Below, piece by piece: positions 1 to 13,888 of a stretch of DNA of 14,107 bases. A program made the translations under genes and the position numbers. The DNA is from a virus (Duplodnaviria; Heunggongvirae; Uroviricota; Caudoviricetes). The stretch lies in IMG/VR virus record IMGVR_UViG_2563366830_000016. The stretch is one strand, 5' to 3'. The notes under the pieces were generated by a model that saw only the letters and a program-made list of their open reading frames with translations, made no database searches and had not been told where the DNA came from. Within the stretch, counting starts at the first letter, position 1; each line of letters opens with the position of its first letter.

Positions 1-1254
1 ATGCTGGAACAAATGGGCATTGCCGCGAAGCAAGCCTCGTATAAATTAGCGCAACTCTCCAGCCGCGAAAAAAATCGCGTGCTGGAAAAAATCGCCGATG
101 AACTGGAAGCACAAAGCGAAATCATCCTCAACGCTAACGCCCAGGATGTTGCTGACGCGCGAGCCAATGGCCTTAGCGAAGCGATGCTTGACCGTCTGGC
201 ACTGACGCCCGCACGGCTGAAAGGCATTGCCGACGATGTACGTCAGGTGTGCAACCTCGCCGATCCGGTGGGGCAGGTAATCGATGGCGGCGTACTGGAC
301 AGCGGCCTGCGTCTTGAGCGTCGTCGCGTACCGCTGGGGGTTATTGGCGTGATTTATGAAGCGCGCCCGAACGTGACGGTTGATGTCGCTTCGCTGTGCC
401 TGAAAACCGGTAATGCGGTGATCCTGCGCGGTGGCAAAGAAACGTGTCGCACTAACGCTGCAACGGTGGCGGTGATTCAGGACGCCCTGAAATCCTGCGG
501 CTTACCGGCGGGTGCCGTGCAGGCGATTGATAATCCTGACCGTGCGCTGGTCAGTGAAATGCTGCGTATGGATAAATACATCGACATGCTGATCCCGCGT
601 GGTGGCGCTGGTTTGCATAAACTGTGCCGTGAACAGTCGACAATCCCGGTGATCACAGGTGGTATAGGCGTATGCCATATTTACGTTGATGAAAGTGTAG
701 AGATCGCTGAAGCATTAAAAGTGATCGTCAACGCGAAAACTCAGCGTCCGAGCACATGTAATACGGTTGAAACGTTGCTGGTGAATAAAAACATCGCCGA
801 TAGCTTCCTGCCCGCATTAAGCAAACAAATGGCGGAAAGCGGCGTGACATTACACGCAGATGCAGCTGCACTGGCGCAGTTGCAGGCAGGCCCTGCGAAG
901 GTGGTTGCTGTTAAAGCCGAAGAGTATGACGATGAGTTTCTGTCATTAGATTTGAACGTCAAAATCGTCAGCGATCTTGACGATGCCATCGCCCATATTC
1001 GTGAACACGGCACACAACACTCCGATGCGATCCTGACCCGCGATATGCGCAACGCCCAGCGTTTTGTTAACGAAGTGGATTCGTCCGCTGTTTACGTTAA
1101 CGCCTCTACGCGTTTTACCGACGGCGGCCAGTTTGGTCTGGGTGCGGAAGTGGCGGTAAGCACACAAAAACTCCACGCGCGTGGCCCAATGGGGCTGGAA
1201 GCACTGACCACTTACAAGTGGATCGGCATTGGTGATTACACCATTCGTGCGTAA
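1..1254 (+). CDS. proA: Gamma-glutamyl phosphate reductase (glutamate-5-semialdehyde dehydrogenase), complete
   Basis: 417-aa ORF starting at base 1 with ATG; translation recognised as enterobacterial ProA over its whole length (ends ...[12 protein letters not shown]); lies directly upstream of tRNA-Thr, as at the E. coli proA-thrW locus. Confidence 0.95.
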
Positions 1255-1368
1255 ATAAAACCGGGTGATGCAAAAGTAGCCATTTGATTCACAAGGCCAT
1301 TGACGCATCGCCCGGTTAGTTTTAACCTTGCCCACCGTGATTCACGTTCGTGAACATGTCCTTTCAGG

Positions 1369-1444
1369 GCCGATATAGCTCAGTTGGTAGAGCAGCGCAT
1401 TCGTAATGCGAAGGTCGTAGGTTCGACTCCTATTATCGGCACCA
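1369..1444 (+). tRNA. thrW: tRNA-Thr (anticodon CGU)
   Basis: 76-nt sequence GCCGATATAGCTCAGTTGGTAGAGC...GGTTCGACTCCTATTATCGGCACCA with cloverleaf-compatible arms, anticodon loop TTCGTAA (CGT) and encoded 3' CCA; recognised as enterobacterial thrW, a known integration target for P4-like and P22-like elements. Confidence 0.95.
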
Positions 1445-1461
1445 TTCAAACATCTCCCCAA

Positions 1462-1545
1462 GTCTACTAAAGTCTTTCAAAACCCCTTATAATCCGCGTA
1501 TTAAAGCCCCGTTCGTCTTTTGACGTCTACTAAAGTCCCTCAAAA
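1462..1545 (+). repeat. Two 21-bp direct repeats (GTCTACTAAAGTCTTTCAAAA at 1462-1482; GTCTACTAAAGTCCCTCAAAA at 1525-1545) between the tRNA 3' end and int; candidate integrase arm-type sites in attL
   Basis: Read directly: 19/21 identical copies spaced about 63 bp apart, immediately downstream of the tRNA and upstream of the integrase start. Tyrosine integrases of tRNA-integrating elements commonly bind arm-type repeats in this position; the function is inferred. Confidence 0.4.
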
Positions 1546-1609
1546 TCTACGGTCAGATGGGGGTACTTATGGGGGTATTTGCTGTTCGGTTTAGTGGAGG
1601 TACCCCCAA

Positions 1610-2824
1610 GTGAAACTCAATGCCCGTCAAATAGACACAGCCAAGCCAAAAGAGAAGGCTTACAAGCTGGCCGATGGTGGCGGTTTGTATCTCTTGGTAA
1701 AACCTAATGGAGGTAAATACTGGCGACTTAAATATCGTGTAGATGGTAAAGAGAAGCTATTGGCACTAGGTGTGTATCCTGAGGTTACTCTAGCCGATGC
1801 TCGGGCAAAACGTGAAGATGCGAAAAGAGGTATCGCTGGTGGTATCGATCCGATGGAAGCGAAACGAGAGGAAAAGATTGCCCGGGAAACGCAGTTAAAC
1901 AACACCTTCAAAGATATTGCCCTTGAGTGGCACAGCAGCAAATTAAAAAAATGGTCTGCTGGTTATGCTTCAGACATCCTCGAAGCCTTCAACAAAGATG
2001 TGTTCCCTTACATTGGCAAAAAACCAATCGCCGAAATCAAACCACTTGAACTTCTGAATGTGCTGCGGCGCATCGAGGGGCGCGGTGCTACAGAAAAAGC
2101 CAAAAAAGTGAGGCAGCGGTGCGGGGAAGTTTTCCGCTATGCAATAGTCACTGGTCGCGCAGAGTATAACCCTGCACCAGACCTTACTAGCGCGATGCAA
2201 GGCCATGAATCTAATCATTACCCTTTCCTTACAGCTAAAGAATTACCTGATTTTTTCAAGGCATTGTCCAGTTACTCAGGAAGCGCATTGGTTGTTATGG
2301 CGGCTCGTCTACTGATTATCACCGGCTTGCGGACTGGCGAACTACGTGGCGCATTATGGGATGAAATTGATTTCAACAAGGCTATCTGGGAGATACCCGC
2401 TTCACGTATGAAAATGCGGCGGCCTCATATTGTGCCATTGTCTGATCAGGCTCTTTCGCTTATTGGGAAGATTAGAGAAATAACAGGCAATTACCCTCTT
2501 ATGTTTCCCGGGCGCAATGATCCAAGGAAAACAATGAGTGAGGCCAGCATAAACCAAGTGTTTAAGCGCATTGGCTACGCTGGACGTGTAACTGGTCATG
2601 GGTTCCGGCACACTATGAGTACGATTTTGCATGAGCAGGGCTATAACACCGCGTGGATAGAAACGCAGCTCGCTCACGTTGATAAGAACTCAATTCGTGG
2701 CACATACAACCATGCGCAATATCTGGATGGAAGGCGGGAGATGCTTCAATGGTATGCCGACTATATGGATTCTCTCGAGCATGGCGGAAATGTGGTGCAT
2801 ATGGTGTTTGAAAAACACGCATGA
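1610..2824 (+). CDS. Tyrosine-type site-specific integrase, P4-like family (GTG start)
   Basis: 404-aa ORF; N-terminus KLADGGGLYLLVKPNGGKYWRLKYRVDGKEKLLALGVYPEVTLADARAKR is the typical P4-type integrase arm-binding domain; C-terminal HGFRHT and catalytic-Tyr region (YNHAQY) consistent with tyrosine recombinases. GTG at 1610 is the only in-frame start; GGAGG lies 9 nt upstream. Adjacent to the tRNA. Confidence 0.9.
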   Translation: MKLNARQIDTAKPKEKAYKLADGGGLYLLVKPNGGKYWRLKYRVDGKEKLLALGVYPEVTLADARAKREDAKRGIAGGIDPMEAKREEKIARETQLNNTFKDIALEWHSSKLKKWSAGYASDILEAFNKDVFPYIGKKPIAEIKPLELLNVLRRIEGRGATEKAKKVRQRCGEVFRYAIVTGRAEYNPAPDLTSAMQGHESNHYPFLTAKELPDFFKALSSYSGSALVVMAARLLIITGLRTGELRGALWDEIDFNKAIWEIPASRMKMRRPHIVPLSDQALSLIGKIREITGNYPLMFPGRNDPRKTMSEASINQVFKRIGYAGRVTGHGFRHTMSTILHEQGYNTAWIETQLAHVDKNSIRGTYNHAQYLDGRREMLQWYADYMDSLEHGGNVVHMVFEKHA

Positions 2825-2967
2825 AACAACTGGACAAGTATACAGAGGTTTACTAAAGTATAGGGGAGTAGATTGATAAAAACTCACAGAGGATTGCTAT
2901 TTAACAGTTAGCCCTGGAGAAGGGCAATCGCTCTTTTATAAACGAAGGTGTATTGAGCCTTCTACGT

Positions 2968-3032
2968 CGCTGACAAAGCGGAATGTTCTTTAACAGGCTT
3001 TGGCGCTGACAAAGCGCAATTGTTCTTTAAAA
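2968..3032 (+). repeat. Tandem imperfect direct repeats of about 28 bp (CGCTGACAAAGCGGAATGTTCTTTAACA / GCGCTGACAAAGCGCAATTGTTCTTTAAAA) in the int-alpA intergenic region
   Basis: Read directly at 2968-2995 and 3003-3032. Position between int and the regulator gene suggests a protein-binding or regulatory site; function unknown. Confidence 0.4.
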
Positions 3033-3131
3033 CTACTGGATGTCACGCCTAATAGCGTGATCCTGCCGAAATGCAGGGTAGCTCTACCCTTGTGGAGCGA
3101 ACAAACCAAAACAATCTGACTATCTTTTATA

Positions 3132-3166
3132 AAAGACCGCAATATGTTTTTCATATTGTGGTCTTT
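3132..3166 (+). promoter_or_regulatory. Long inverted repeat (15-bp arms, 5-nt centre): AAAGACCGCAATATG-TTTTT-CATATTGTGGTCTTT, upstream of alpA
   Basis: Read directly; one mismatch in 15 bp; no U-tract follows on either strand, so operator-like or RNA-structure rather than an intrinsic terminator. A TTGACG motif follows at 3181-3186. Confidence 0.4.
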
Positions 3167-3252
3167 GGCGTATTCGACATTTGACGCAAATAAAACTCTC
3201 GCCATTCGTTGCAGGAGGGGGTTATTGCGTCATTAGTACAGGATATTAATAA

Positions 3253-3456
3253 ATGGCTAATTACAATTCATTAATTCGTCTCTCTGAAGTTCAAAGGCGA
3301 ACTGGTTATAGCAAAGCATGGATTTATCGTCTTATTAGTCAGGGGAGGTTCCCTAAACAGGTAAAAATTGGAAGTCGGGCAATTGCTTTTGTTGAGTCTG
3401 AAATAGATGAATGGATTGAGAAGTGTATATTAGAATCTAGAGACGAGGTGGCCTGA
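3253..3456 (+). CDS. alpA: AlpA-family phage/island transcriptional regulator (small HTH protein)
   Basis: 67-aa ORF with ...GYSKAWIYRLISQGRFPKQVKIGSRAIAFVESEIDEWIE..., the characteristic AlpA (prophage CP4-57 regulatory protein) pattern; AGGA about 10 nt upstream; same orientation as int, as in P4-like and PICI-type elements. Confidence 0.85.
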   Translation: MANYNSLIRLSEVQRRTGYSKAWIYRLISQGRFPKQVKIGSRAIAFVESEIDEWIEKCILESRDEVA

Positions 3457-3887
3457 TGGAAAAGAAAAACCGCCCATTACAGGCGGCTAATTCAGATATT
3501 CGTGTATCTGATGTTACGCCCCTTACAAAATCCCTTCAAGCACCAAAGCGCACACCGAAAAAGCATCGTGCCAGAGTCTATATGCTGCGTACTGGTATAG
3601 AGGGATGGACAGAAAATGACATTCTTCGCTACTGCCGTCTGTCTTCTGGTCGTAACTATGCAACAGAGTTAGAACGCCAGCTTGGAATCACTCTGGAGCG
3701 TATCGACGAAAAGAATCCTGATGGTATCGGAACACACCTTCGCTACCGTTTCTCCTGCCGTGGTGATGTTCTGAAAGTGATCACTCATATTAACCATCTT
3801 GCGAACATAAATGATCACAACGGACTTTCTCAGCAGGAAATTGCCGACATTCTGAAACTCTACCCGGACGCGTTTAACGCCGCCTAA
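3456..3887 (+). CDS. Hypothetical protein, 143 aa, basic N-terminus; translationally coupled to alpA
   Basis: ATG overlaps the alpA stop (TGATG). N-terminal Lys/Arg-rich segment (PKRTPKKHRARVY) suggests nucleic-acid binding. No family recognised. Confidence 0.6.
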   Translation: MEKKNRPLQAANSDIRVSDVTPLTKSLQAPKRTPKKHRARVYMLRTGIEGWTENDILRYCRLSSGRNYATELERQLGITLERIDEKNPDGIGTHLRYRFSCRGDVLKVITHINHLANINDHNGLSQQEIADILKLYPDAFNAA

Positions 3888-3899
3888 CGGAGACTGAAA

Positions 3900-4733
3900 A
3901 TGAACATCGAAAAAAGCAGATTAATTTCTGAGGCCGCCCCTCATCTGAACGCCTCTCTGGGCACAATTAACGGTAATGAATTTGCCGCAATTGTCCCGGT
4001 TATTCCAGGTCACATCGGTGGGCGTGAAACCAATATTGTTAGCGCAAAAGCGTTACACAAAGCGTTGGGCGTGGGAAAAGACTTCTCTACATGGATCACT
4101 GATCGCATCTCTGAATATGACTTCACCATTGGGCACGATTACTCAGTCCATAAAACAATTTCCCCAAATTTGGGGAAAAGCCCGAATGGCACGGCTTACA
4201 GCAAGATTAAGCAGTCTGGCAGACCCGGCAAAGACTATCTGTTAAGTGTCGGAATGGCGAAAGAGCTGGCAATGATCGAACGCAATGATCAGGGTCGCGC
4301 TATCCGTCGTTATTTCATCCAGTGCGAGGAAGAATTACAGCGTAGCGTGCCTGAAATCGCCGCCCGCTATCGTCGCCAGCTAAAAGCCCGTATCAGTGCC
4401 GCAAACAACTTTAAGCCAATGTGCGATGCGCTGAATATGGCCCGTGCCGAGCAGGGGAAAACGACGCAGCAACACCACTACACAAACGAGAGCAATATGA
4501 TTTCTCGTATCGTTCTTGGAGGGCTAACTGCTAAGCAGTGGGCGCGGATAAATGGCTATTCTGGCGAACCTCGCGACCATATGAACGCAGAACAGCTTGA
4601 GCACCTCTCATATCTCGAAAGCACCAATATCACGTTAATTGATATGGGCATGGAATATGAGCAGCGCAAAGGAGAACTCACCCGCCTGTCGCAACGCTGG
4701 CTCGCCAAGCGTCTGGAGGCGGTCCATGTTTAA
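3900..4733 (+). CDS. Putative phage regulatory/antirepressor-like protein (Rha/KilAC-like region)
   Basis: 277-aa ORF; GGAGA RBS 7 nt upstream; segment DYLLSVGMAKELAMIERNDQGRAIRRYFIQCEEEL resembles the conserved core of phage antirepressor (KilAC/Rha-type) domains. Family assignment is from memory of the motif, not a search. Confidence 0.55.
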   Translation: MNIEKSRLISEAAPHLNASLGTINGNEFAAIVPVIPGHIGGRETNIVSAKALHKALGVGKDFSTWITDRISEYDFTIGHDYSVHKTISPNLGKSPNGTAYSKIKQSGRPGKDYLLSVGMAKELAMIERNDQGRAIRRYFIQCEEELQRSVPEIAARYRRQLKARISAANNFKPMCDALNMARAEQGKTTQQHHYTNESNMISRIVLGGLTAKQWARINGYSGEPRDHMNAEQLEHLSYLESTNITLIDMGMEYEQRKGELTRLSQRWLAKRLEAVHV

Positions 4734-4908
4734 GCCGACAGGAACACCACAACCTCAAAAACGCTACAAAGATGCCCACGGAGCACTCGTTACTGTCGAA
4801 AGCGTGTCTCACAACCGAGTGACGTTTTATCGCGACGGGTATCAATCGCCATGCGTACAACCGCTGGCGCGCTTCATGAAGGAGTTCGCGGAGGTTAACA
4901 AATGCTAA
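4726..4908 (+). CDS. Hypothetical small protein (60 aa)
   Basis: ATG at 4726 preceded by GGAGG (8 nt spacing) and overlapping the stop of the upstream gene; in frame with track ORF 4639-4908. No family recognised. Confidence 0.5.
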   Translation: MFKPTGTPQPQKRYKDAHGALVTVESVSHNRVTFYRDGYQSPCVQPLARFMKEFAEVNKC

Positions 4909-5339
4909 CCGTCCAGAAGAAGATATTTTCACTGACTGCTATGTCGCAAAAATCCAGCAATATGACAGCAAAGTCTGGCATTAATACAGCAGATACAAGC
5001 AAAGCTTATCATTTTATGGTGGTAGGAGCGGATGCCTTAACTATGTCAGAAATTACGGTCGATGGTGTTAGCGTTGAGAAGGTCAGCGGCTGCGCCAGAG
5101 AATTTCTGGTCGTAGATGACCTGTTCTGCTCGCGTAGTGACTCCACAAAAATCTTCGTCCGCACGCGCGACGTTAACGAAATGAGCGCGATGTACTGTGC
5201 CTCTGGTTCTTCCAATAGTGAGTTTTCGGAGTCCATAAAAAAGAGCTTGCCGTTATGCGGCAACACGGTTTATGGTTATAAGGCACCTCATAAAACGGGT
5301 GCCGGGATTAGGACCCCGCAGGCAATCGAGGCGATACAT

Positions 5340-5360
5340 GACGCGCCAGCGTCTTTTTTT
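5340..5360 (+). terminator. Candidate intrinsic terminator / attenuator: GACGC-gcca-GCGTC hairpin followed by T7
   Basis: Read directly: 5-bp GC-rich stem, 4-nt loop, then TTTTTTT at 5354-5360. Short stem, so moderate-to-low confidence. Lies inside the gap with no convincing gene (4909-5524). Confidence 0.35.
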
Positions 5361-5524
5361 GTATCGGCGCACACGCACACCTTATCAATGGTGGGCTGTA
5401 TGGGGCTGACTTCGGTCAGGCTGGTTTCCTTGATTGCCAGTAGTCCTAACCCTGTACAGTCCACCGCCAGCGAGCTTAGGACCTCCGGCGGTGGCTATAA
5501 ACCATCAATCAAGGAGGCTGCCAC

Positions 5525-5719
5525 ATGCTGGCTACTACCCCTACCCAAAAACCGCAATTTATCTGGATTATCGCCGCAGTTCGCCGCGATTGCCCGACAA
5601 TTACCGCCAAAATTCATCATATTGCTGCCGAGTCTGAACGCGATGCTCGCCGTTCTCTGGTGCGCGATCACATCTGCTTTTTTGCTGGTCGTATCCGCAT
5701 GGAGGTGGCACATGATTAA
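5525..5719 (+). CDS. Hypothetical small protein (64 aa); first gene of the coupled operon leading to the primase
   Basis: Strong RBS AAGGAGG at 5511-5517, 7 nt before ATG; host-like codon usage (CTG, CGC, GCC, ATC); its stop overlaps the next gene's start. Confidence 0.7.
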   Translation: MLATTPTQKPQFIWIIAAVRRDCPTITAKIHHIAAESERDARRSLVRDHICFFAGRIRMEVAHD

Positions 5720-5930
5720 AACCTACGATGTGCATATGGATCCCCTCGAACGCACAAGCCAGATCATCACACTGACAGAAGTGATTAACGACATTCTGGT
5801 GAGCAACTCTCCCTCACGAGACGAAAGACTGAAGGCGTTACTCGCGATATTGGATCTCGCCGTTCGTGACGTTCATTTCCTGCTGGAAGGTGGACAAATG
5901 CCATGCAAAACGGGGGCAACCAATGAATAA
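5712..5930 (+). CDS. Hypothetical small protein (72 aa)
   Basis: ATG at 5712 with GGAGGTG 4-10 nt upstream; overlaps the upstream stop; forms the 3' part of track ORF 4902-5930. Confidence 0.6.
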   Translation: MIKTYDVHMDPLERTSQIITLTEVINDILVSNSPSRDERLKALLAILDLAVRDVHFLLEGGQMPCKTGATNE

Positions 5931-6117
5931 CTCAATTAATACCCCTCGCCTTACGTCCGCACTTCAATTAATCGAGCAAGCAGCGGCTGTCCTGGTTGCT
6001 GTCAGTCTTTCGGCTGAAGAAATGGACGCTGCTGATGTCGTGGATGCGATTAAAGCGTGCTCATCTTTGGTTAACGATGCCCGTGCCGAGCTGGTAATTC
6101 TTGGGGGTGAAAAATGA
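5923..6117 (+). CDS. Hypothetical small acidic protein (64 aa)
   Basis: ATG at 5923 (GGGGG 6 nt upstream), overlapping the upstream stop (ATGAATAA); acidic, predicted helical (SAEEMDAADVVDAIKA...). Confidence 0.6.
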   Translation: MNNSINTPRLTSALQLIEQAAAVLVAVSLSAEEMDAADVVDAIKACSSLVNDARAELVILGGEK

Positions 6118-6377
6118 ATATCAACTTAATTTATCGTCATCCGTGTGAGCTGGAAATTGAATCATTGCTGGGGCGCGAAGAGCCATATCCAGACACATTC
6201 ACTCCCGCAGATTGCGCGACTGAACGGCTTACCAGAGCGCGCACAGGTCTGGTTCATGTGATGAATGAGATTGTTCCCTCGGTGGGAGGGGAACAGGCGA
6301 CAGTAATCAATAGCTGGCTACAAAAAGTTACCTCCCTGATAGATATCGGTTTAATCGATGTGGAGAGTGCGAAATGA
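6114..6377 (+). CDS. Hypothetical small acidic protein (87 aa)
   Basis: ATGA start/stop overlap with upstream gene; GGGGGTG RBS. Confidence 0.65.
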   Translation: MNINLIYRHPCELEIESLLGREEPYPDTFTPADCATERLTRARTGLVHVMNEIVPSVGGEQATVINSWLQKVTSLIDIGLIDVESAK

Positions 6378-6595
6378 CCAACATCCAGCTCATTGAAGCG
6401 CAATGTCGCATCGAACAGGTTCAGACTGTTTTAGGGTTCTGGCTTGAAGGGGCCAGCCCCAGCAACAGAGACAAGTTAATGATTGGCGCGGTTATGTCAC
6501 TGCTCAATGGCGTACCAGAAGCTATTCAGGAAGCGGACGAATTGTTGGGCAAATATGAGTTACAGAATCATTCAGGCGAGGCGAAACATGAATAA
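6374..6595 (+). CDS. Hypothetical small protein (73 aa)
   Basis: ATGA overlap with upstream gene; GGAGAG RBS. Confidence 0.65.
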   Translation: MTNIQLIEAQCRIEQVQTVLGFWLEGASPSNRDKLMIGAVMSLLNGVPEAIQEADELLGKYELQNHSGEAKHE

Positions 6596-7190
6596 TTTCT
6601 TAACTTTCCATGCAGAAGCAACGCCTGACGGCGTAAACATCATGTACCGCAGCAACGATGGCATGACAGAACGCGTTGAGACCGTCTCATATATTGATGC
6701 CGTAAATCGTCTGGATGCCGGGGATTATGACGATAAACCAGATGAAGGCATGTTTATACATCTCGCTATTGCCAGTGGCGGCAACCAGGGATATTTCGAT
6801 TACACATCACAGCATCACGTGATTATGTGGCGCTGGCTGATAGCAACAGCATTCATCAATGAAATGAGAAAGGAAAACGGCACTGTCAGCATCATTGATG
6901 ATACTGGCAATCCTTCCGAAGTGGCTGTTTATTCCAACGGCATCGTCGCCATGCCGCTGTATCCAGTAGCAGAGCGCCTCGCTATGGCAAACAACATTGA
7001 GGGCGCGATGATAGAACGTTTTGGCATCGAGTCTGGCACAGAACGCGCCATCATTTTCTACAGAGCCATGATGGATGTGGAACAAGGAGCACTGACTCCA
7101 TTTGGTCGTGAAACGCTTGCTGAACTTCACAACAGCTTTATAGCTGAACTGAATGAAAACGGCATGCCAGCGGAACCAGTGACGCACTGA
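6588..7190 (+). CDS. Hypothetical protein (200 aa)
   Basis: ATG at 6588 overlaps upstream stop (ATGAATAA); GAGG RBS; internal part of track ORF 6483-7190. No family recognised. Confidence 0.7.
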   Translation: MNNFLTFHAEATPDGVNIMYRSNDGMTERVETVSYIDAVNRLDAGDYDDKPDEGMFIHLAIASGGNQGYFDYTSQHHVIMWRWLIATAFINEMRKENGTVSIIDDTGNPSEVAVYSNGIVAMPLYPVAERLAMANNIEGAMIERFGIESGTERAIIFYRAMMDVEQGALTPFGRETLAELHNSFIAELNENGMPAEPVTH

Positions 7191-7200
7191 GGATGGAGCC

Positions 7201-7542
7201 ATGATTACTAAAAATTTCCGACTGAATGCGCTGGCAAATAAGTATGCGTCAGCACTGTATAACCACATTACCTCCACCAGCGGCGGGGACTATTTCATGA
7301 TTGATGCGGACGGAGAGGCCGTCCGTGTGGAAATCGTCAATGGAGTAAAAGGCGTTCGCAGCCTGATCGATAGTTACGCACTGGCAGCCATGAAAGTGTT
7401 CTACCCGCAGTGGGAAACCGTGGGGATCGAGCTTCTTGATCGTTGCGTCACTAAGGACAGATTGACTGACGTCGGGCGTGAGATATGGCAAAGCATGGTT
7501 AATGACATGGGCGCAACTGTAGCGGGAGGTTCTCATGCGTGA
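7201..7542 (+). CDS. Hypothetical protein (113 aa)
   Basis: GAGGATGGAG RBS directly upstream; overlaps downstream gene start. Confidence 0.7.
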   Translation: MITKNFRLNALANKYASALYNHITSTSGGDYFMIDADGEAVRVEIVNGVKGVRSLIDSYALAAMKVFYPQWETVGIELLDRCVTKDRLTDVGREIWQSMVNDMGATVAGGSHA

Positions 7543-7906
7543 AAATGTAGAAATGGCGCTTAGCTCCGCAATCGGAGAGCAGGTGGCAAAGATTGCTGGT
7601 GCTGTGTGGATTCATAACCTTCATTCTACTGGTGAAGAGAAAATGGCAATTCAGACGCCAGAGGGACGCACCATTACTACATCTCTGAAGCCGTCAGATG
7701 TTTGTGATCTGATTTGCGCATTCATGTACCCAGCAATGAGGACTGTCCACGGCGATAAGTGGAAACTTGCGACAACCGCTGAATTTGATATGTGGCTAAA
7801 CAATGATGGCATGCTGACTGATTACGGAATAACCAAGTGGCAGATGCTAGTTAGCCATATCGCAAACGCTATAGACCACGTGGGGTACGGTGATGCGAAA
7901 CATTGA
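7535..7906 (+). CDS. Hypothetical protein (123 aa)
   Basis: GGGAGG RBS 6 nt upstream; 3' end overlaps the primase start by 14-17 nt. Confidence 0.7.
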   Translation: MRENVEMALSSAIGEQVAKIAGAVWIHNLHSTGEEKMAIQTPEGRTITTSLKPSDVCDLICAFMYPAMRTVHGDKWKLATTAEFDMWLNNDGMLTDYGITKWQMLVSHIANAIDHVGYGDAKH

Positions 7907-10649
7907 TCTTATCCGTCAGGTTATCAGTGCGTCTGAAAACAACTGGCCTCATGTGCTGGGCTGCCTGAACATAAATGTCCCTGACTCTCCGCGCCGTCAT
8001 GCTCCCTGCCCTGCATGTGGGGGCAAAGATCGATTCCGGTTCGATGACAACGGGCGCGGTAGCTTCATCTGTAATCAGTGCGGCGCTGGTGATGGGCTGG
8101 ATTTAATTAAACGCGTAAATAACTGCGACACAACAGAGGCGGCGCTTCTTGCCGCTGATGTTCTGGGTATTGATTACCGGACAACGGAAACACCAGAAGC
8201 CACCAGCCAGAAACGGGAACAACTGGAAACCGAGCGCCAGCGACGCGAACAGGAGCGCCTGAAAAGGGCAGAGAAGGACGAACAACAAAGACGGGATACG
8301 TTTTCCCGTCAGTTTGATGACATGCGCAGAAAGGCTGTAAACGGCAAATCTGATTATCTGGTTGCGAAAGGGGTAGGTGATTTTACATTCCCCGTGTTGC
8401 CCGATGGATCTCTGTTGCTGGCGCTGGTGGATAAATCCGGCGCAGTAACAGCAGCACAGACTATTACCTCACATGGTGAAAAAAGACTCCTGACAGGTTC
8501 AGCAAAGCGAGGGGCATATCACGCCATAAACGCACCAGAAACAACACAGAGCATCTTAATCGCAGAAGGGCTGGCAACGGCATTATCTGCCCATTTAATG
8601 CGTCCAGAGGCGCTGACAGTGGCGGCGATTGATGCCGGGAACCTGTTATATGTCGCCCAGGTACTGCGGGATAAATTTCCTTCAGCACAAATCATCATTG
8701 CTGCGGATAACGACCACAGCGAAGGAAGACAAAACACGGGGAGAATAGCAGCAGAAAAAGCAGCTTTATCTGTTTCTGGATGGGTGGCATTACCCCCGAC
8801 AGATCACAAAGCAGACTGGAATGATTACCACCAAAAACACGGCATTAAATGCGCCACAGAAGCGTTCAATAAGTCAATGTACCAACCACAGGGTAATGGC
8901 GTGAAACAGGAGCCACAGACCATTGAGGGAAGCGATTTTAAGGTTATGGATACCGATCCACTGAAACCAAGAATAGAAAGCCGCGAGGATGGTATTTATT
9001 GGGTATCTCCGAGAGCTGACAGCCAGAGTGGAGAAATCATCAATAACGAAAGCTGGTTATGTTCTCCGTTAAGCGTTATCGGTACTGGCAGAGACGATAA
9101 AGACCAGTATCTCATTCTTCGCTGGCTGTCGTTTGGTTCTGAAACGCCGACAACCGCTGCCATTCCACTGGCTGATATTGGTGAACGTGAAGGATGGCGC
9201 ACACTTAAAGCTGGTGGGGTAAATGTCACGACCAAAAGCAGCCTCAGAGCAATACTGGCAGACTGGCTACAACGCAGTGGCTCTCGTGAATTGTGGCGTG
9301 TTGCTCATGCCACTGGCTGGCAATGCGGAGCGTACATCATGCCTGATGGGGAAATCATCGGAACACCTGAAAATCCTGTGCTGTTCAGCGGGAGAAGCTC
9401 AGCCGCAGCCGGATATACCGTCTCAGGGAGCGCGAAAAGCTGGCGTGATAACGTGGCGCGTCTGGCCTTTGGTAACTATTCAATGATGACCGGGATCGGC
9501 GCAGCACTGGCAGCGCCATTGATTGGGCTGGTGGGCGCTGACGGGTTCGGCATTCATTTCTATGAGCAGTCGAGCGCAGGTAAGACCACCACGGCAAACG
9601 TGGCGAGCAGCTTATACGGCAACCCTGATTTACTGCGGCTGACGTGGTACGGAACCGCGCTGGGGCTGGCAAATGAGGCCGCCGCCCACAATGACGGACT
9701 AATGCCGCTTGATGAAGTTGGTCAGGGCGCTGATCCTGTCAGCGTTTCACAGTCTGCCTATGCGTTATTTAACGGTGTAGGGAAACTGCAAGGCGCTAAA
9801 GATGGTGGAAACCGGGATCTAAAACGCTGGCGTACAGTGGCAATCAGCACCGGAGAAATGGATTTAGAAACATTTATCGCTACTTCCGGGCGAAAAACCA
9901 AAGCCGGGCAACTGGTGCGACTGCTGAATATTCCGTTGAGTAAAGCAGTACGCTTTCACGATTACCAGAACGGAAAACAGCACGCAGACGCACTGAAAGA
10001 CGCTTACCAGCATCACCACGGCGCGTCCGGGCGTGAGTGGATTAAATGGCTGGCAGACCACCAGCAACAGGCTATTAAAACCGTTCGTGACTGCGAAAGC
10101 AGATGGAGAAGCCTGATCCCATCCGATTATGGTGAGCAGGTTCACCGTGTAGCCGCGCGATTTGCCATTCTGGAGGCCGCATTGTTGTTAGGCGAGGTTG
10201 TAACAGGCTGGGATGCTCAGACATGCCGTGATGCGATACAGCACAGCTATAACGCATGGTTGCGCGAGTTCGGCACAGGTAACAAAGAGCATCAGCAGAT
10301 TATTGAACAAACGGAGGCATTTCTTAATGCCTATGGGCTTAGCCGTTTTGCACCATTTCCATACAGCCCGGCAGATTTGCCCATCAAAGATTTAGCCGGA
10401 TACCGTCAGCGTGGAGAACATGACGAAAGCCCAATGATTTTCTACACATTCCCGGCCACATTTGAAAAGGAGATCGCATGTGGTTTCAACGCAAAACAGT
10501 TTGCTGAAGTGTTGAAAAAAGCCGGGATGCTAACCCCACCAAACAGCGGTCGTGGATACCAAAGAAAATCACCACGTATTCAGGGACGACAAATAAACGT
10601 TTATGTACTCAATTACCAGCCAGGAGATTATAACTCATCTGAAGAATGA
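7890..10649 (+). CDS. Satellite/phage-type DNA primase-helicase (primase Zn-ribbon + TOPRIM + P-loop NTPase, P4 alpha-like)
   Basis: 919-aa ORF. N-terminal zinc-ribbon CPACGG...FICNQCG typical of primase-helicase Zn-binding domains; charged linker (EQLETERQRREQERLKRAEKDEQQRR); TOPRIM-like acidic motif (IAADNDHSEGRQ); Walker A (SSAGKTTT). Track start is GTG 7890; ATG at 7893 is the alternative. Confidence 0.9.
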   Translation: MMRNIDLIRQVISASENNWPHVLGCLNINVPDSPRRHAPCPACGGKDRFRFDDNGRGSFICNQCGAGDGLDLIKRVNNCDTTEAALLAADVLGIDYRTTETPEATSQKREQLETERQRREQERLKRAEKDEQQRRDTFSRQFDDMRRKAVNGKSDYLVAKGVGDFTFPVLPDGSLLLALVDKSGAVTAAQTITSHGEKRLLTGSAKRGAYHAINAPETTQSILIAEGLATALSAHLMRPEALTVAAIDAGNLLYVAQVLRDKFPSAQIIIAADNDHSEGRQNTGRIAAEKAALSVSGWVALPPTDHKADWNDYHQKHGIKCATEAFNKSMYQPQGNGVKQEPQTIEGSDFKVMDTDPLKPRIESREDGIYWVSPRADSQSGEIINNESWLCSPLSVIGTGRDDKDQYLILRWLSFGSETPTTAAIPLADIGEREGWRTLKAGGVNVTTKSSLRAILADWLQRSGSRELWRVAHATGWQCGAYIMPDGEIIGTPENPVLFSGRSSAAAGYTVSGSAKSWRDNVARLAFGNYSMMTGIGAALAAPLIGLVGADGFGIHFYEQSSAGKTTTANVASSLYGNPDLLRLTWYGTALGLANEAAAHNDGLMPLDEVGQGADPVSVSQSAYALFNGVGKLQGAKDGGNRDLKRWRTVAISTGEMDLETFIATSGRKTKAGQLVRLLNIPLSKAVRFHDYQNGKQHADALKDAYQHHHGASGREWIKWLADHQQQAIKTVRDCESRWRSLIPSDYGEQVHRVAARFAILEAALLLGEVVTGWDAQTCRDAIQHSYNAWLREFGTGNKEHQQIIEQTEAFLNAYGLSRFAPFPYSPADLPIKDLAGYRQRGEHDESPMIFYTFPATFEKEIACGFNAKQFAEVLKKAGMLTPPNSGRGYQRKSPRIQGRQINVYVLNYQPGDYNSSEE

Positions 10650-10672
10650 GCTTCTTCATGTGCGTAGAAAAG

Positions 10673-10787
10673 GTGTTGGTTCAGTTGGTTTAGTTGGTTC
10701 AATTTGTAAAGAGTATTGTTTTATAAGGATTTTATTCTTTTTATTGAACCAACACTGAACCAACAACACGGTATTTTGAACCAACAC
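10673..10787. repeat. Iteron-type origin candidate: 3 direct repeats GTTGGTT(C/T)A (10673-10701), AT-rich spacer, 3 inverted copies TGAACCAAC(A)AC (10745-10787)
   Basis: Read directly. Clustered 9-11 bp repeats in opposing orientation around an AT-rich core, immediately downstream of the primase-helicase gene, is the classic arrangement of a satellite/phage replication origin. Confidence 0.65.
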
Positions 10788-10893
10788 AATGTGACTGAAT
10801 TGATGCGCACAACACCTGGCTGGCATCAGAGAGTGTTTTACGAGACTTTCGTAAAATCCTGTGTACAAGGGCGTGACGTTTTTGAAAGTGAGC

Positions 10894-10912
10894 ACTACGA
10901 AATTTTCGTAGT
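10894..10912. promoter_or_regulatory. 19-bp palindrome ACTACGAAA-T-TTTCGTAGT (operator-like), with an additional TTTCGTA half-site about 45 bp upstream
   Basis: Read directly; 9-bp arms, perfect. Related half-site within ACTTTCGTAAAAT at 10845-10857. Function inferred. Confidence 0.35.
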
Positions 10913-11105
10913 TCAGAAAACAGCCTCTGAGAAGTTGTTATGCCTGTTCAGCAAACCATCCGCATAGCTGATCGCGAATCAAATTACCAATGGAGCCAGA
11001 AGCAAGGGCAGAACTGAAAAGCGCCTGCCGTGAAGAGTAATGCGACACCATAAATATAGTTTTTAGAGTCCATAAAAAACCTGTCAAAACCTGACACACA
11101 GAACG

Positions 11106-11138
11106 ATGCCACCAGCTACTGAGCGGTGGCATTTTTTT
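11106..11138 (+). terminator. Rho-independent terminator (8-bp stem ATGCCACC/GGTGGCAT, 11-nt loop, T7 tract)
   Basis: Read directly: perfect 8-bp GC-rich stem followed by TTTTTTT at 11132-11138. Confidence 0.65.
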
Positions 11139-11171
11139 GTGCTATTTGTTTCATATTTTGCAATTACGATG

Positions 11172-11200
11172 ATGAATATTGCGATTTGTGAAACTATAAT
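11172..11200 (+). promoter_or_regulatory. Candidate sigma70 promoter: consensus -10 TATAAT (11195-11200) with weak -35 ATGAAT at 17-bp spacing
   Basis: Perfect TATAAT hexamer 34 nt upstream of the ATG at 11234 and just downstream of the terminator; the -35 is weak, so low confidence. Confidence 0.35.
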
Positions 11201-11233
11201 AACTGTTGTTTTATACAGTTCTAAGGGGGCGTT

Positions 11234-11395
11234 ATGGCTATTTCAGTAAAGCCGGTATTGATAAGTGAGAAGCAAATGGAAGCGATAAAGAAAATTCAGG
11301 AAGAGCAGCGTAAAAAATCAGGAATTGGAGTAGCGCCAACTCTGCATGAAATTGCACGAGGGTTAATAGATAAGGCGCTGGCAGGCTGTATGTGA
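11234..11395 (+). CDS. Small ORF (53 aa), ribbon-helix-helix-like predicted fold; putative DNA-binding regulator or antitoxin-like protein
   Basis: Below the 60-aa track cutoff; found by reading. AAGGGGG RBS 4-5 nt upstream. MAISVKPVLISEKQMEAIKKIQEEQRKKSGIGVAPTLHEIARGLIDKALAGCM shows a beta-strand/helix/helix pattern typical of Arc/MetJ/CopG-type proteins. Fold assignment is inference. Confidence 0.45.
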   Translation: MAISVKPVLISEKQMEAIKKIQEEQRKKSGIGVAPTLHEIARGLIDKALAGCM

Positions 11396-11411
11396 AAATG
11401 GATGGCATCGC

Positions 11412-11873
11412 ATGGAACTAAAATTTATTGATAACCCTGTGCGATTACAGGCCTTTCTTAACGAGCCAGGCAATACCGAAAATATTGTTGAGCCGGGGCA
11501 CACGTACTACATCAAGCCTGATGCGGTATATCTCGGCATCTACGAAGGATTAGTGCTGGCTGGCGTTCATGAAGTGCGTAACTTCTGGCATAGCGTTGTT
11601 GAATGCCATGCGGTGTACGACCCCGGATTCCGTGGTGAATATGCACTGCAAGGACATCGATTATTCTGCAAATGGCTTCTCGAAAACTCACCATTCCTTA
11701 ACAGCATCACTATGGTTCCTGACACCACGAAATACGGACGGGCAATTATCCGTTTGCTTGGCGCTACCCGTGTTGGTCACCTTGATGATGCTTATATCAG
11801 ATGTGGTAAACCCGTCGGCGTAACGCTTTATCAGTTAACTCGGCAACAATATAAGGAATTCAGCGAATGTTAA
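11412..11873 (+). CDS. Hypothetical protein (153 aa), possibly P22 gp14-like; co-transcribed with downstream ejection-protein-like genes
   Basis: 153-aa ORF; its stop overlaps the next gene's start (ATGTTAA). Position and size match the gene preceding gp7 in P22-like clusters; the homology is recalled, not verified. Confidence 0.6.
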   Translation: MELKFIDNPVRLQAFLNEPGNTENIVEPGHTYYIKPDAVYLGIYEGLVLAGVHEVRNFWHSVVECHAVYDPGFRGEYALQGHRLFCKWLLENSPFLNSITMVPDTTKYGRAIIRLLGATRVGHLDDAYIRCGKPVGVTLYQLTRQQYKEFSEC

Positions 11874-12544
11874 TTACCCATATAGCTCATAAACATCTCA
11901 ATCGTGCCGTATACGAAAAAGGCGGTGATGGTGGTGCCTCTAAAGCTCAGGCGAAGGCCCAGCAGCAGGCAATTGATTTGCAGCGCGAGCAGTGGAATAC
12001 GGTGATGAATAATCTCAAGCCGTATGCAGAAGTCGGATTGCCTGCTTTACAACAACTACAAGGACTGATGACTCTGGAAGGGCAGAATAAAGCCGCGAAT
12101 GATTTCTTTGGTTCTGGTTTATATAAAACACAGGCAGATCAGGCCCGTTATCAGAACCTTGTCTCAGCAGAAACTACCGGGGGGCTTGGCTCAACAGCTA
12201 CCAGTAACCAGTTATCTTCCATTGCGCCCATGCTTTATAACAATTGGCTTAGTGGGCAAATGCAAAATTATGGAAACCTGCTAAATGTCGGGATGAATGC
12301 GGCATCAGGGCAGGCAACGGCAGGGCAAAACTACGCCAATAATACCGGACAACTCTTGCAGGGGCTTGGCGCTATTCGTGCAGGTCAGGCGCAGCAGCCA
12401 TCCAGTCTTGCGCGTGGTATTGGTGGGGCAGCATCAGGCGCTTTAGCGGGTGCGCAACTTGGTTCCGTTGTTCCTGGAATAGGAACTGCGGCCGGCGCTA
12501 TTGGTGGTGGGCTTATTGGTCTTGTTGGGGGGCTTGGATTCTAA
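11867..12544 (+). CDS. P22 gp7-like DNA-transfer (ejection) protein candidate, Gln/Gly/Ala-rich with glycine-zipper hydrophobic C-terminus
   Basis: 225-aa ORF, AAGGA RBS; low-complexity Q/G/A-rich composition and C-terminal GIGTAAGAIGGGLIGLVGGLGF segment. Size and composition match podovirus ejection protein gp7 (about 229 aa). Assignment by composition and synteny only. Confidence 0.55.
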   Translation: MLITHIAHKHLNRAVYEKGGDGGASKAQAKAQQQAIDLQREQWNTVMNNLKPYAEVGLPALQQLQGLMTLEGQNKAANDFFGSGLYKTQADQARYQNLVSAETTGGLGSTATSNQLSSIAPMLYNNWLSGQMQNYGNLLNVGMNAASGQATAGQNYANNTGQLLQGLGAIRAGQAQQPSSLARGIGGAASGALAGAQLGSVVPGIGTAAGAIGGGLIGLVGGLGF

Positions 12545-13863
12545 TGGCGACATGGCAACTTGGCGGGCTGCCTAGCATGGCACCGCAAAATGATAATGCT
12601 CCTCGTTCTTCCGTTCCTCAGCCTGTGCAGTATCAGCAGCAGCCAAACGTAGGTTTAATGGCGCTACAGGGGCTAAGAGGCGTTGCTGAGATTAATCAGC
12701 AGGCGCAAATTTCCCAGCAGCTAAAAGAATATCAGGCACGGTTGGGTAGTGCGGTAGCTAATAATGATCGTGTTGGCGTGCAGAAGTTAATGGCCCAGTA
12801 TCCCCAGTTTATGGCTGATTCTCAAAAACAGATGGGATTCATTGATGCTGAGCAAAATCGGCAGACCGCTGACGCTGCCATGAATCTGCGTCTTGCGTCA
12901 CAAACTGGAGATCCACTGACCATGCAGAAGGCCATTCAGCAGGCAAATCCAGTATTACAGCGATTTGGTCTTCCTGCTGAAGAGGTTTATCAGTCTTGGC
13001 AGAATGACCCACAGGAATTCAACAGAATCACTGACCTCATCCACCTCCATGCTGATCCAAATAGTTACTTTAGTGTTCAAGAGAAGCAGCAAGGGCAGAG
13101 TATTGCACAGCAGAACGCAGATACATCTGCATATAATGCTCAGGTTAATGCGGAGCAGGGTAATCGGCGGCTCGATATGGAGCAGTTCAAAGTCCTATCC
13201 GATAACCAACTACGCACGAGAGAAATGGTTCTGAAAGCACGACTTGGACGTGCTCAAAATGACATCGAGAGAGACAAGCTCAATGCTGAACTGAGCAAGG
13301 TACAGCAGGCGAAAGTGGAGAAGATGAACGATAAAATTAATACTGTTGCAGGTAATATCGACTCCTTGAACTCTGCGCTTGAAGTGGGTCATGAACTGGC
13401 GGGAATTGTAGGGAAACATCCTTCGGCCGTTACCCGTTCGCAGAACTATAACCCCCTGACGCTGGGGTTTGGATTCCTCCCTGATGTAGCAGAAGACACA
13501 CGAAGCCTACGCGCCAAAGCTGATGAATACAACCTAAAGGTTATTCTGCCTAGCCTAAAAGGTACTTTTGGCTCTAACCCAACCGAAGGGGAAAGGGCTG
13601 CCCTTATGCAATCTCAAAATGGCATTAAGTCAGCAACCAGCAATGAGGCATTTTTGCGAGAGTTGAATAAAGCGCAGGACGTAATTATTCGAATGCAGAA
13701 ACGACAGATTGCCGGGCTCGGTATTCCTGTAACCAAATCTAAGGACGAAGAAACTGATACCAAAATGCTGTTGCAGGATCCTTCACTGGTTAAGGATTAT
13801 GTGACCGCACATGGCTATCTGCCGGAAAGTTACTATCAGGCAAAACTTAAGGGATGGCAATGA
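12544..13863 (+). CDS. P22 gp20-like DNA-transfer (ejection) protein candidate, Gln-rich coiled-coil protein
   Basis: 439-aa ORF starting at TAATG overlap with the upstream gene; Q-rich, helical/coiled-coil character; size and position match gp20 (about 470 aa) of P22-like phages. Assignment is inference. Confidence 0.55.
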   Translation: MATWQLGGLPSMAPQNDNAPRSSVPQPVQYQQQPNVGLMALQGLRGVAEINQQAQISQQLKEYQARLGSAVANNDRVGVQKLMAQYPQFMADSQKQMGFIDAEQNRQTADAAMNLRLASQTGDPLTMQKAIQQANPVLQRFGLPAEEVYQSWQNDPQEFNRITDLIHLHADPNSYFSVQEKQQGQSIAQQNADTSAYNAQVNAEQGNRRLDMEQFKVLSDNQLRTREMVLKARLGRAQNDIERDKLNAELSKVQQAKVEKMNDKINTVAGNIDSLNSALEVGHELAGIVGKHPSAVTRSQNYNPLTLGFGFLPDVAEDTRSLRAKADEYNLKVILPSLKGTFGSNPTEGERAALMQSQNGIKSATSNEAFLRELNKAQDVIIRMQKRQIAGLGIPVTKSKDEETDTKMLLQDPSLVKDYVTAHGYLPESYYQAKLKGWQ

Positions 13864-13888
13864 TGGCACAACTGACAGAAAAACAGAA
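13863..13888 (+). pseudogene. 5' stub (about 9 codons, MAQLTEKQN...) of the next gene in the cluster (gp16-like position), truncated by IS insertion
   Basis: ATG at 13863 overlaps the upstream stop (TGATG), continuing the coupling pattern; the reading frame runs into the IS terminal repeat beginning at 13889. Confidence 0.35.

Follow-up and report, generated by a model that had tools for sequence, protein, structure and literature searches.

In the class of replication initiators formed by Rep of the Staphylococcus aureus pathogenicity islands (SaPIs) and Cch, the helicase is itself the initiator and reads, via a C-terminal winged helix, iterons that lie directly after its own open reading frame (ORF) and flank an AT-rich region (PMC9371898). 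An origin organisation like the one described below has been reported for Gram-negative phage-inducible chromosomal islands (PICIs), and plasmid maintenance in EcCICFT073 requires both pri and ori (Fillol-Salom et al. 2018, PMC6092414); autonomous replication from pri-ori, lost on deletion of ori, has been shown for EcCICFT073, the SaPIs and EfCIV583 only (PMC6092414). A further member, EcCIMP1, is a PICI that resides in tRNA-Thr between proA and yagU, excises, circularises and requires the helper Kapi1 for transduction (PMC11773190). Here, we describe an iteron array in the IMG/VR record IMGVR_UViG_2563366830_000016, a stretch of 14,107 nucleotides (the window) that is a thrW-integrated PICI of Escherichia coli of the EcCIMP1 type. 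Positions 10673-10787, directly after the primase-helicase gene, probably constitute the cognate origin-type iteron array of that gene's product, of the PICI/SaPI type, and comparative sequence evidence predicts that they function in replication.

An array of facing iterons after the primase-helicase gene

Sequence reading, a repeat finder, Tandem Repeats Finder and a pattern search concurred in placing, 3′ of the primase-helicase gene, three 9-mers on a direct arm that face three inverted copies (Table 1). The gene ends in a TGA stop codon (10647-10649), with 25 bp between it and the first iteron. On the inverted arm, the copies start 11 and 21 bp apart, a helical-repeat spacing that places them on the same face of the helix. 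The outer copies of both arms share an 11-mer (GTGTTGGTTCA/TGAACCAACAC), which explains why a preliminary description of this DNA had set the limits of the repeats at 10673 and 10787. All five exact copies of the 9-mer in the window fall within 111 bp, and only three scattered one-mismatch matches lie beyond the array (pattern search of the 14,107-bp window); the chance expectation for any one 9-mer is roughly 0.1 exact copies (arithmetic estimate). The array is thus far beyond chance, and the three direct and three inverted repeats around an AT-rich core that the preliminary description had reported are confirmed.

No other 43-mer in the window is as rich in A+T as the spacer between the arms, and the spacer also gives the lowest duplex stability of any 40-mer, with a nearest-neighbour energy of -40.5 kcal/mol against a window mean of -54.9 kcal/mol (standard deviation [SD], 3.8). 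No DnaA box (TTWTNCACA), integration host factor (IHF) consensus or GATC was found in 10500-11250 by pattern search, an absence that fits a self-loading helicase, and the array has no match to an oriC-type 13-mer.

The adjacent gene encodes a protein with a Zn ribbon (amino acids [aa] 35-70), a Toprim_3 domain (aa 222-319), a DUF927 helicase core (aa 366-644; E = 3.5e-47) and a C-terminal domain (Pfam); its RefSeq name is "TOPRIM and DUF927 domain-containing protein," and the D5_N and DUF5906 domains were not found in it (Pfam). The best PDB sequence match is to 8tch_A, a "Pathogenicity island protein" (E = 1.4e-11; aa 403-814), and a second match is to 5dgk_A, the Cch "Active helicase" (E = 0.011). 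These two matches assign the protein to the SaPI-Rep/Cch class. By sequence, it is a homologue of SaPI Rep and of Cch of the staphylococcal cassette chromosome mec (SCCmec), a class of self-loading helicases, and self-loading is predicted for it as well.

Conservation of the layout among related loci

The comparison drew on diverged E. coli copies and 80 loci of other Enterobacterales, and the layout was counted as present if the top 8-mer occurred at least four times within 260 bp 3′ of the stop codon. By this measure, the layout is common to 74 of 87 related loci, across Enterobacterales. The first direct copy lies 21 to 30 bp 3′ of the stop codon in most of these 74 loci, and the first inverted copy usually lies 93 to 99 bp 3′ of it. 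Tandem copies are spaced by 9 bp (62 gaps), or by 18 bp if the middle copy is imperfect, and 11 and then 21 bp is the rule in the inverted arm. Median values for the spacer are 43 bp in length and 79.5% in A+T content. The arms can be unequal, as two relatives (L007 and L009) have two direct versus four inverted copies, and EcCIMP1 itself has an inverted arm spaced 21/21 instead of 11/21, the cause being a 21-bp duplication.

Conservation within the array was expressed as the fraction of sequences that have the base of the window, among 39 distinct sequences of the GTTGGTTCA group from many genera. The mean is 0.90 for the direct arm, and the three successive inverted copies reach 0.98, 0.98 and 0.92. 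The spacer, whose sequence diverges, has a mean of 0.63; conservation drops to 0.45 in the gap between the second and third inverted copies (10767-10776) and to 0.28 past 10788. This is the pattern that marks protein-binding sites, here probably read by the product of the adjacent gene. Three overlapping ORFs in the region (10603-10758 on the plus strand, 10656-10895 on the minus strand and 10716-10967 on the plus strand) were rejected as genes because RefSeq annotates none of them and conservation collapses outside the iterons.

Ahead of the first iteron, 3′ of the stop codon (10650-10672 and its equivalents), most relatives share a loose CA(C/T)(A/G)T(G/A)CGTAG-like sequence followed by an A-run (AAAAGG, AAAAAT), and they do so across iteron specificity groups.

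Concerted change of the iteron word and the protein C terminus

At least 14 iteron words occur among the lineages, each paired with its own version of a C-terminal protein segment of about 20 residues (aa 887-907 in the window). The words include GTTGGTTCA, GTTGTCTCA, GTTGCCTCA, GTTGTCCCA, GTTGTACCA, GTCGGTTCA, CGTGGTTCA, TGCGGGTTA, ACGGGTTA, GTGGGTTA, GTCGGGTA, ATGGGTTTC, GCGGGATAT and TGGGATAA, along with others. The sequence GTTGGTTC accompanies the residues QRKSPR in 39 of 40 loci and occurs in none of the 47 loci without QRKSPR; the repeats of the sole exception (L036) are visibly decayed. Likewise, GTTGTCTC accompanies QGRVRE in six of six loci.

The association does not simply mirror overall similarity. 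The L003 protein is 54, 71 and 79% identical to the window protein over three successive segments, yet it has the same wing segment and the same word, while the closer L002 protein (74, 83 and 89%) has the wing QGRV-REG and carries GTTGTCTCA in all copies. Despite the changed word, the spacer of L002 is still recognisably similar to that of the window. Across mosaic islands, the word follows the C terminus of the helicase, not alpA or other regulators. These comparisons suggest that each initiator allele has its own iteron word, and the concerted change of all copies with retained geometry is a stronger argument for this than the association between segment and word. Residues 887-907 would then be the DNA-reading wing of a winged-helix domain.

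Modules of the enterobacterial type, with primase and origin, are also present in two assemblies labelled as non-enterobacterial, namely, L015 (labelled Chryseobacterium sp. 18061; 78% identity) and L047 (Pseudomonas lundensis I31; 61%), the latter with a word of its own, TTGTACCA. Contamination or wide transfer may explain these two labels.

A second array in complete elements

The array after the primase that the preliminary description had reported (cluster A) is not the only one: complete elements add to it, outside the window and just upstream of perC, a mirror-image cluster B of the same word about 8 kb downstream. Cluster B consists of three copies of the GTTGGTTCA word spaced by 21 bp, followed by an AT-rich spacer and three copies in tandem. 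The two clusters are 8.1 to 8.6 kb apart in elements without insertion sequences (ISs) (8.1 kb in L001 and about 8.5 kb in EcCIMP1) and 10.9 kb apart in the IS-laden L012. The start codon of perC lies 36 bp past the end of cluster B, which is followed by CTATATAATC; in other islands, an TATATATA element comes after the second cluster.

Among 75 related loci, a second cluster lies no more than 420 bp from the first in 38 and is not seen in the 2.5-kb flank in 36. In sister islands, the clusters are adjacent, with the order primase, A, B, (ssb), perC, which suggests that, in islands of the EcCIMP1 type, A and B were separated by the insertion of an ejection-protein cassette. Satellite phage P4 offers a parallel: in its annotated record, crr (4291-4590) comes directly after the stop codon of alpha and a terminator, ori is 4.5 kb off, and both are made of the type 1 repeat. 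Cluster A is the best candidate for the origin proper because it is the invariant part.

Proposed function and alternative readings

We propose the following sequence of events. On induction of the island by a helper phage, the Zn-ribbon/Toprim/DUF927 protein would be made, and its C-terminal domain would read the 9-bp word GTTGGTTCA on both arms. Helicase oligomers of the SaPI-Rep/Cch type may then assemble on the two facing arms, melt the 43-bp spacer, load onto the single strands and prime synthesis with their own Toprim primase, so that initiation would proceed without DnaA boxes. The earlier proposal of a cognate origin whose binding sites flank an unwinding element draws support from the layout in 74 loci, the co-variation of word and C terminus, the conservation focused on the repeats and the match to published PICI and SaPI origins (PMC6092414, PMC9371898).

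Several points weigh against this proposal. Binding, melting and initiation at the array are events that we infer from sequence, and the EcCIMP1 paper maps no origin (PMC11773190). The assignment of the C-terminal reading domain as a winged helix is weak: Pfam HTH_56, the helix-turn-helix (HTH) of Cch, scored E = 0.24 on the window protein and 6.8e-4 on the L007 protein, both short of the cutoff; a PDB profile search with 28 C-terminal domains gave no meaningful match; and an AlphaFold2 model of the domain, with the order helix-helix-strand-wing-strand, is of low confidence (predicted local distance difference test score, 64.7), its best Foldseek match being the winged HTH protein 5vfy at E = 0.14, with all matches above E = 0.1. 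Linkage contributes to the co-variation, since fewer than 130 bp separate the codons of the protein segment from the iterons. At position 10691, in the middle direct copy (GTTGGTTTA), the window has a rare C-to-T variant, T being present in less than 10% of the 39 related sequences; strains cq9, M15 and MP1 have C at the equivalent position. The initiator of EcCICFT073, with its D5_N/DUF5906/Pox_D5 domains, differs from the Zn ribbon/Toprim/DUF927 protein of the window. Finally, given the second array and the position of crr in P4, initiation might take place at the other array.

This last point leads to the strongest of the alternatives, namely, that cluster A is a cis enhancer similar to P4 crr, with replication starting at cluster B or requiring both clusters, bridged by the initiator. 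The occurrence of two same-word arrays in inverted orientation in L001, L012 and EcCIMP1, the nearby second cluster in about half of the related loci (38/75) and the P4 arrangement, in which the array directly after the alpha gene is crr and ori is 4.5 kb away, all fit such a role. We nevertheless consider it unlikely, as the offset of cluster A is constant across 74 loci, a second cluster is not seen in the 2.5-kb flank in 36 of 75, and cluster A holds the full design of two arms and the least stable spacer. Moreover, the published PICI and SaPI origins are at the position of cluster A (PMC6092414, PMC9371898), and the initiator of the window is outside the P4 alpha family. A second alternative is that the repeats serve the initiator, or some other regulator of the island, as transcriptional operators, acting on read-through into the cassette or, at cluster B, on perC. 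The iterons of plasmid initiators often double as operators; the location of cluster B 36 bp before the start of perC, the CTATATAATC that follows it and the TATATATA after the second cluster elsewhere would suit this role. This reading is nonetheless very unlikely, for cluster A lies downstream of the gene and not at its promoter (a promoter scan of 10400-11500 returned no sigma-70-like site), the word goes with the C terminus of the helicase rather than with alpA or other regulators, and facing arms around a conserved spacer of extreme A+T content are the design of an origin, with which an operator role could coexist.

The inverted arms could also act as a hairpin or cruciform, as a single-strand initiation signal, a terminator or a small RNA, instead of as protein sites. 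As single-stranded DNA, 10668-10792 does fold well (-25.3 kcal/mol; z = -5.05), and the same hairpin accounts for the one hit returned for the locus by Rfam at E ≤ 1, a spurious match to the microRNA-precursor family RF04128 (E = 0.67, below the family threshold). The arms, however, are not collinear mirror images (9-bp tandem versus 11/21), their copy numbers are unequal in L007 and L009, and conservation is confined to the 9-mers and not to a pairing register, with no Rfam family reaching threshold. Given these differences between the arms in spacing and, among relatives, in copy number, pairing is best seen as a by-product; the hairpin or cruciform reading of the whole array was rejected on these grounds and is highly improbable. 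Even less credible is the idea that the repeats arose by chance or are decaying without function. The one-mismatch 9-mer is indeed not globally enriched in the window (9 matches against a shuffle mean of 3.4, with 4 of 200 shuffles reaching 9), but the exact copies are all clustered in 111 bp, the iterons are conserved at 0.90 to 0.98 among 39 distinct sequences from many genera, and the decayed L036 displays what lost constraint looks like; the comparative data already speak against this possibility.

With the cognate-origin reading preferred, a bolder proposition can be put forward, which combines two parts and which we regard, taken as a whole, as possible but rather doubtful. In the first part, islands of the EcCIMP1 type would have a split bipartite origin, made of A after the primase gene and its exact mirror image B against the perC promoter region, which a mobile P22-type ejection-protein cassette would have parted by inserting into an A+B origin that is contiguous in sister islands; A and B would be bridged by the initiator as P4 ori and crr are, or they would fire as two convergent origins. 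In the second, the central bases of GTTGnnnCA would be specified by a readable recognition code in the short wing segment of DUF927 initiators. If the origin is indeed split, the start of replication would be linked to the expression of perC.

The preliminary description had also pointed out a small hairpin that overlaps the primase stop codon. It is present in the sequence and, with its flanks, folds as RNA at -9.0 kcal/mol (z = -2.2); it is not kept in the family (median z of -0.08 over 83 distinct sequences). As an intrinsic terminator it was rejected, as its stem is A/T-rich and has no T-run and it is absent from the list of a terminator scan that does detect 11115-11130 plus its T-run. 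The lack of conservation and of a T-run leaves no function supported for this hairpin.

The host island and the end of the replication module

The gene order int, alpA, antA, ash, primase beside tRNA-Thr/proA, together with 98% identity of window positions 1-13888 to EcCIMP1 of strain MP1, identifies the window as a PICI. A segment that spans the array (10400-11400) has matches in 540 of 5,426 complete E. coli genomes, and a megablast search of a phage database with 7890-11400 returned nothing beyond one 39-bp match. The Rfam matches in the ash region (Table 1) correspond to an RNA immunity system of the P4 CI/seqA-like type, which other PICIs have been noted to carry. An island in E. coli cq9 (L001, 10380-29000) shares the replication module and cargo of the window but carries another integrase and lies between yicC and dinD rather than in tRNA-Thr; the integration module has thus been exchanged between this island and the window (1369-2824).

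Table 1. Features of the window and positions of the iteron clusters in complete elements
Feature	Position	Strand	Remarks
proA	1-1254
tRNA-Thr(CGT)	1369-1444
Tyrosine integrase	1610-2824
AlpA	3253-3456
AntA	3900-4733
Ash	4902-5930
Rfam matches in ash region: isrK, C4 antisense RNA	5283-5359 and 5384-5471	+	63 bits and 80 bits
Primase-helicase gene	7890-10649	+	919 aa; ORF list and Pfam
Codons for aa 887-907	10548-10610	+	GRGYQRKSPRIQGRQINVYVL; segment co-varying with iteron word (alignments)
Hairpin GAAGAA-tgagc-TTCTTC	10641-10657	+	Overlaps TGA stop; probably incidental
Non-coding stretch	10650-11233		585 bp
Direct arm	10673-10701	+	Three tandem 9-bp iterons, period 9; GT of extended 11-mer at 5′ end
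Direct iteron 1	10675-10683	+	GTTGGTTCA
Direct iteron 2	10684-10692	+	GTTGGTTTA; one mismatch
Direct iteron 3	10693-10701	+	GTTGGTTCA
A+T-rich spacer	10702-10744	.	Putative DNA-unwinding element; 43 bp, 84% A+T; ATTTGTAAAGAGTATTGTTTTATAAGGATTTTATTCTTTTTAT
Inverted arm	10745-10787	-	Three iterons TGAACCAAC (reverse complement): 10745-10753, 10756-10764, 10777-10785
Boundary, replication module/ejection-protein cassette	10788-10829	.
53-aa ORF, then P22 ejection-protein homologues	11234 onward		DUF2824, gp7, gp20-like
Cluster A/cluster B, L001	20276-20386/28418-28538
Cluster A/cluster B, L012	20988-21098/31904-32024		Strain M15, ~100% identical to window
Cluster B, EcCIMP1	NZ_CP139039 3567855-3567735

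The array had further been taken to mark the likely functional end of the replication module, and the comparison with diverged elements agrees with this. BLAST homology stops at 10786 in one element (H33) and at 10789 in another (H34), and the match to a third (H54) consists of the iterons only (10668-10789). The sequence from 10829 onward belongs to a different cassette: 10829-10950 is found again behind an unrelated DUF5906 primase (H49/L097), accompanied by the same 53-aa ORF and ejection-protein genes. The stop in homology and the separately travelling leader of the cassette together support the placement of the end of the module here.

The cassette itself (window 11234-13863 and beyond; L097 2906-5122) comprises the 53-aa ORF, DUF2824, gp7 and gp20-like genes and then a lytic transglycosylase/gp16-like gene, and it occurs with its 5′ leader in another E. 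coli island, behind the DUF5906 primase. It is unusual for a satellite to encode DNA-ejection proteins of its own; in the EcCIMP1 paper, these genes are labelled just "DNA transfer" (PMC11773190). Its leader holds two related palindromes 57 bp apart, TTTTACGAGACTTTCGTAAAA (10836-10856) and ACTACGAAATTTTCGTAGT (10894-10912), a pair that resembles paired operator sites and moves as part of the cassette rather than of the origin (H49-H53). Between the array and the 53-aa ORF lies a strong intrinsic-terminator-like hairpin (GATGCCACC...GGTGGCATTTTTTTG; 11105-11141, plus strand), separated from the iterons by an untranslated stretch of about 310 nt, and an unannotated 64-aa ORF is present on the minus strand (10938-11132).

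Significance

The EcCIMP1 family gains a concrete, testable candidate origin, and the array ties this family to the self-loading helicases of the SaPI-Rep/Cch class. The kind of origin is already known, and the array leaves the current picture of PICI replication unchanged; the array of the EcCIMP1-type element itself is new to the searchable literature. A full-text search for iteron strings found the tandem 16-mer and 20-mer in no paper, and the preprint on Cf-PICIs makes no mention of origins. With at least 14 words and matching protein segments, the related loci form a natural series for studying how initiators read DNA, one that could be used to predict replicon incompatibility or cross-talk among co-resident satellites. 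The displaced second array prompts the question of whether PICI origins are bipartite like that of P4.

Comparison with known systems

Like the origins of iteron plasmids (RepA, pi, TrfA), the array has repeated initiator words beside an AT-rich region that is presumably unwound. Origins of that class have iterons of about 17 to 22 bp in one orientation, DnaA boxes and loading of the host DnaB. The array of the window, with 9-mers in two orientations, no DnaA box, IHF consensus or GATC, and an initiator that is itself a helicase, does not belong to this class of long one-orientation iterons with DnaA boxes.

The resemblance to P4 is closer. Both are enterobacterial satellites with a fused primase-helicase-DNA-binding protein, an array after the stop codon of its gene (crr in P4) and an array of the same word kilobases away (ori in P4), and the spacers between facing iterons are AT-rich in P4 as well (69% and 83% A+T). 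Two separated same-word arrays are indeed present in L001, L012 and EcCIMP1. In contrast, the P4 iteron is an octamer (TGTTCACC), alpha is of the D5_N/DUF5906 superfamily 3 helicase type, so that an alpha-family initiator is missing from the window, and the remote array that is seen in P4 is not seen in half of the relatives of the window.

In EcCICFT073, two tandem 9-bp CTGTCTACC copies begin 14 bp after the stop codon and are followed by an AT-rich stretch and an inverted copy. Tandem 9-bp iterons after the stop codon, the AT-rich stretch and the inverted copy are thus common to both islands; unlike in EcCICFT073, the word is GTTGGTTCA here, and the second cluster is displaced by about 8 kb.

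With SaPI and SCCmec Cch, the locus shares a homologous protein, an origin position directly after the rep ORF, opposed iterons around an AT-rich centre and allele-specific specificity. SaPI iterons are shorter and more numerous (5 to 6 nt, 6 to 12 in number) than the 9-mers of the window, whose arms are also built differently (period 9 versus 11/21), whose helicase is fused to a Toprim primase and whose host is Gram negative. What the window does have is an array directly 3′ of its initiator gene, at least two opposed iterons on each side of an AT-rich centre and an initiator of the SaPI-Rep/Cch type, all features of origins of the PICI/SaPI type.

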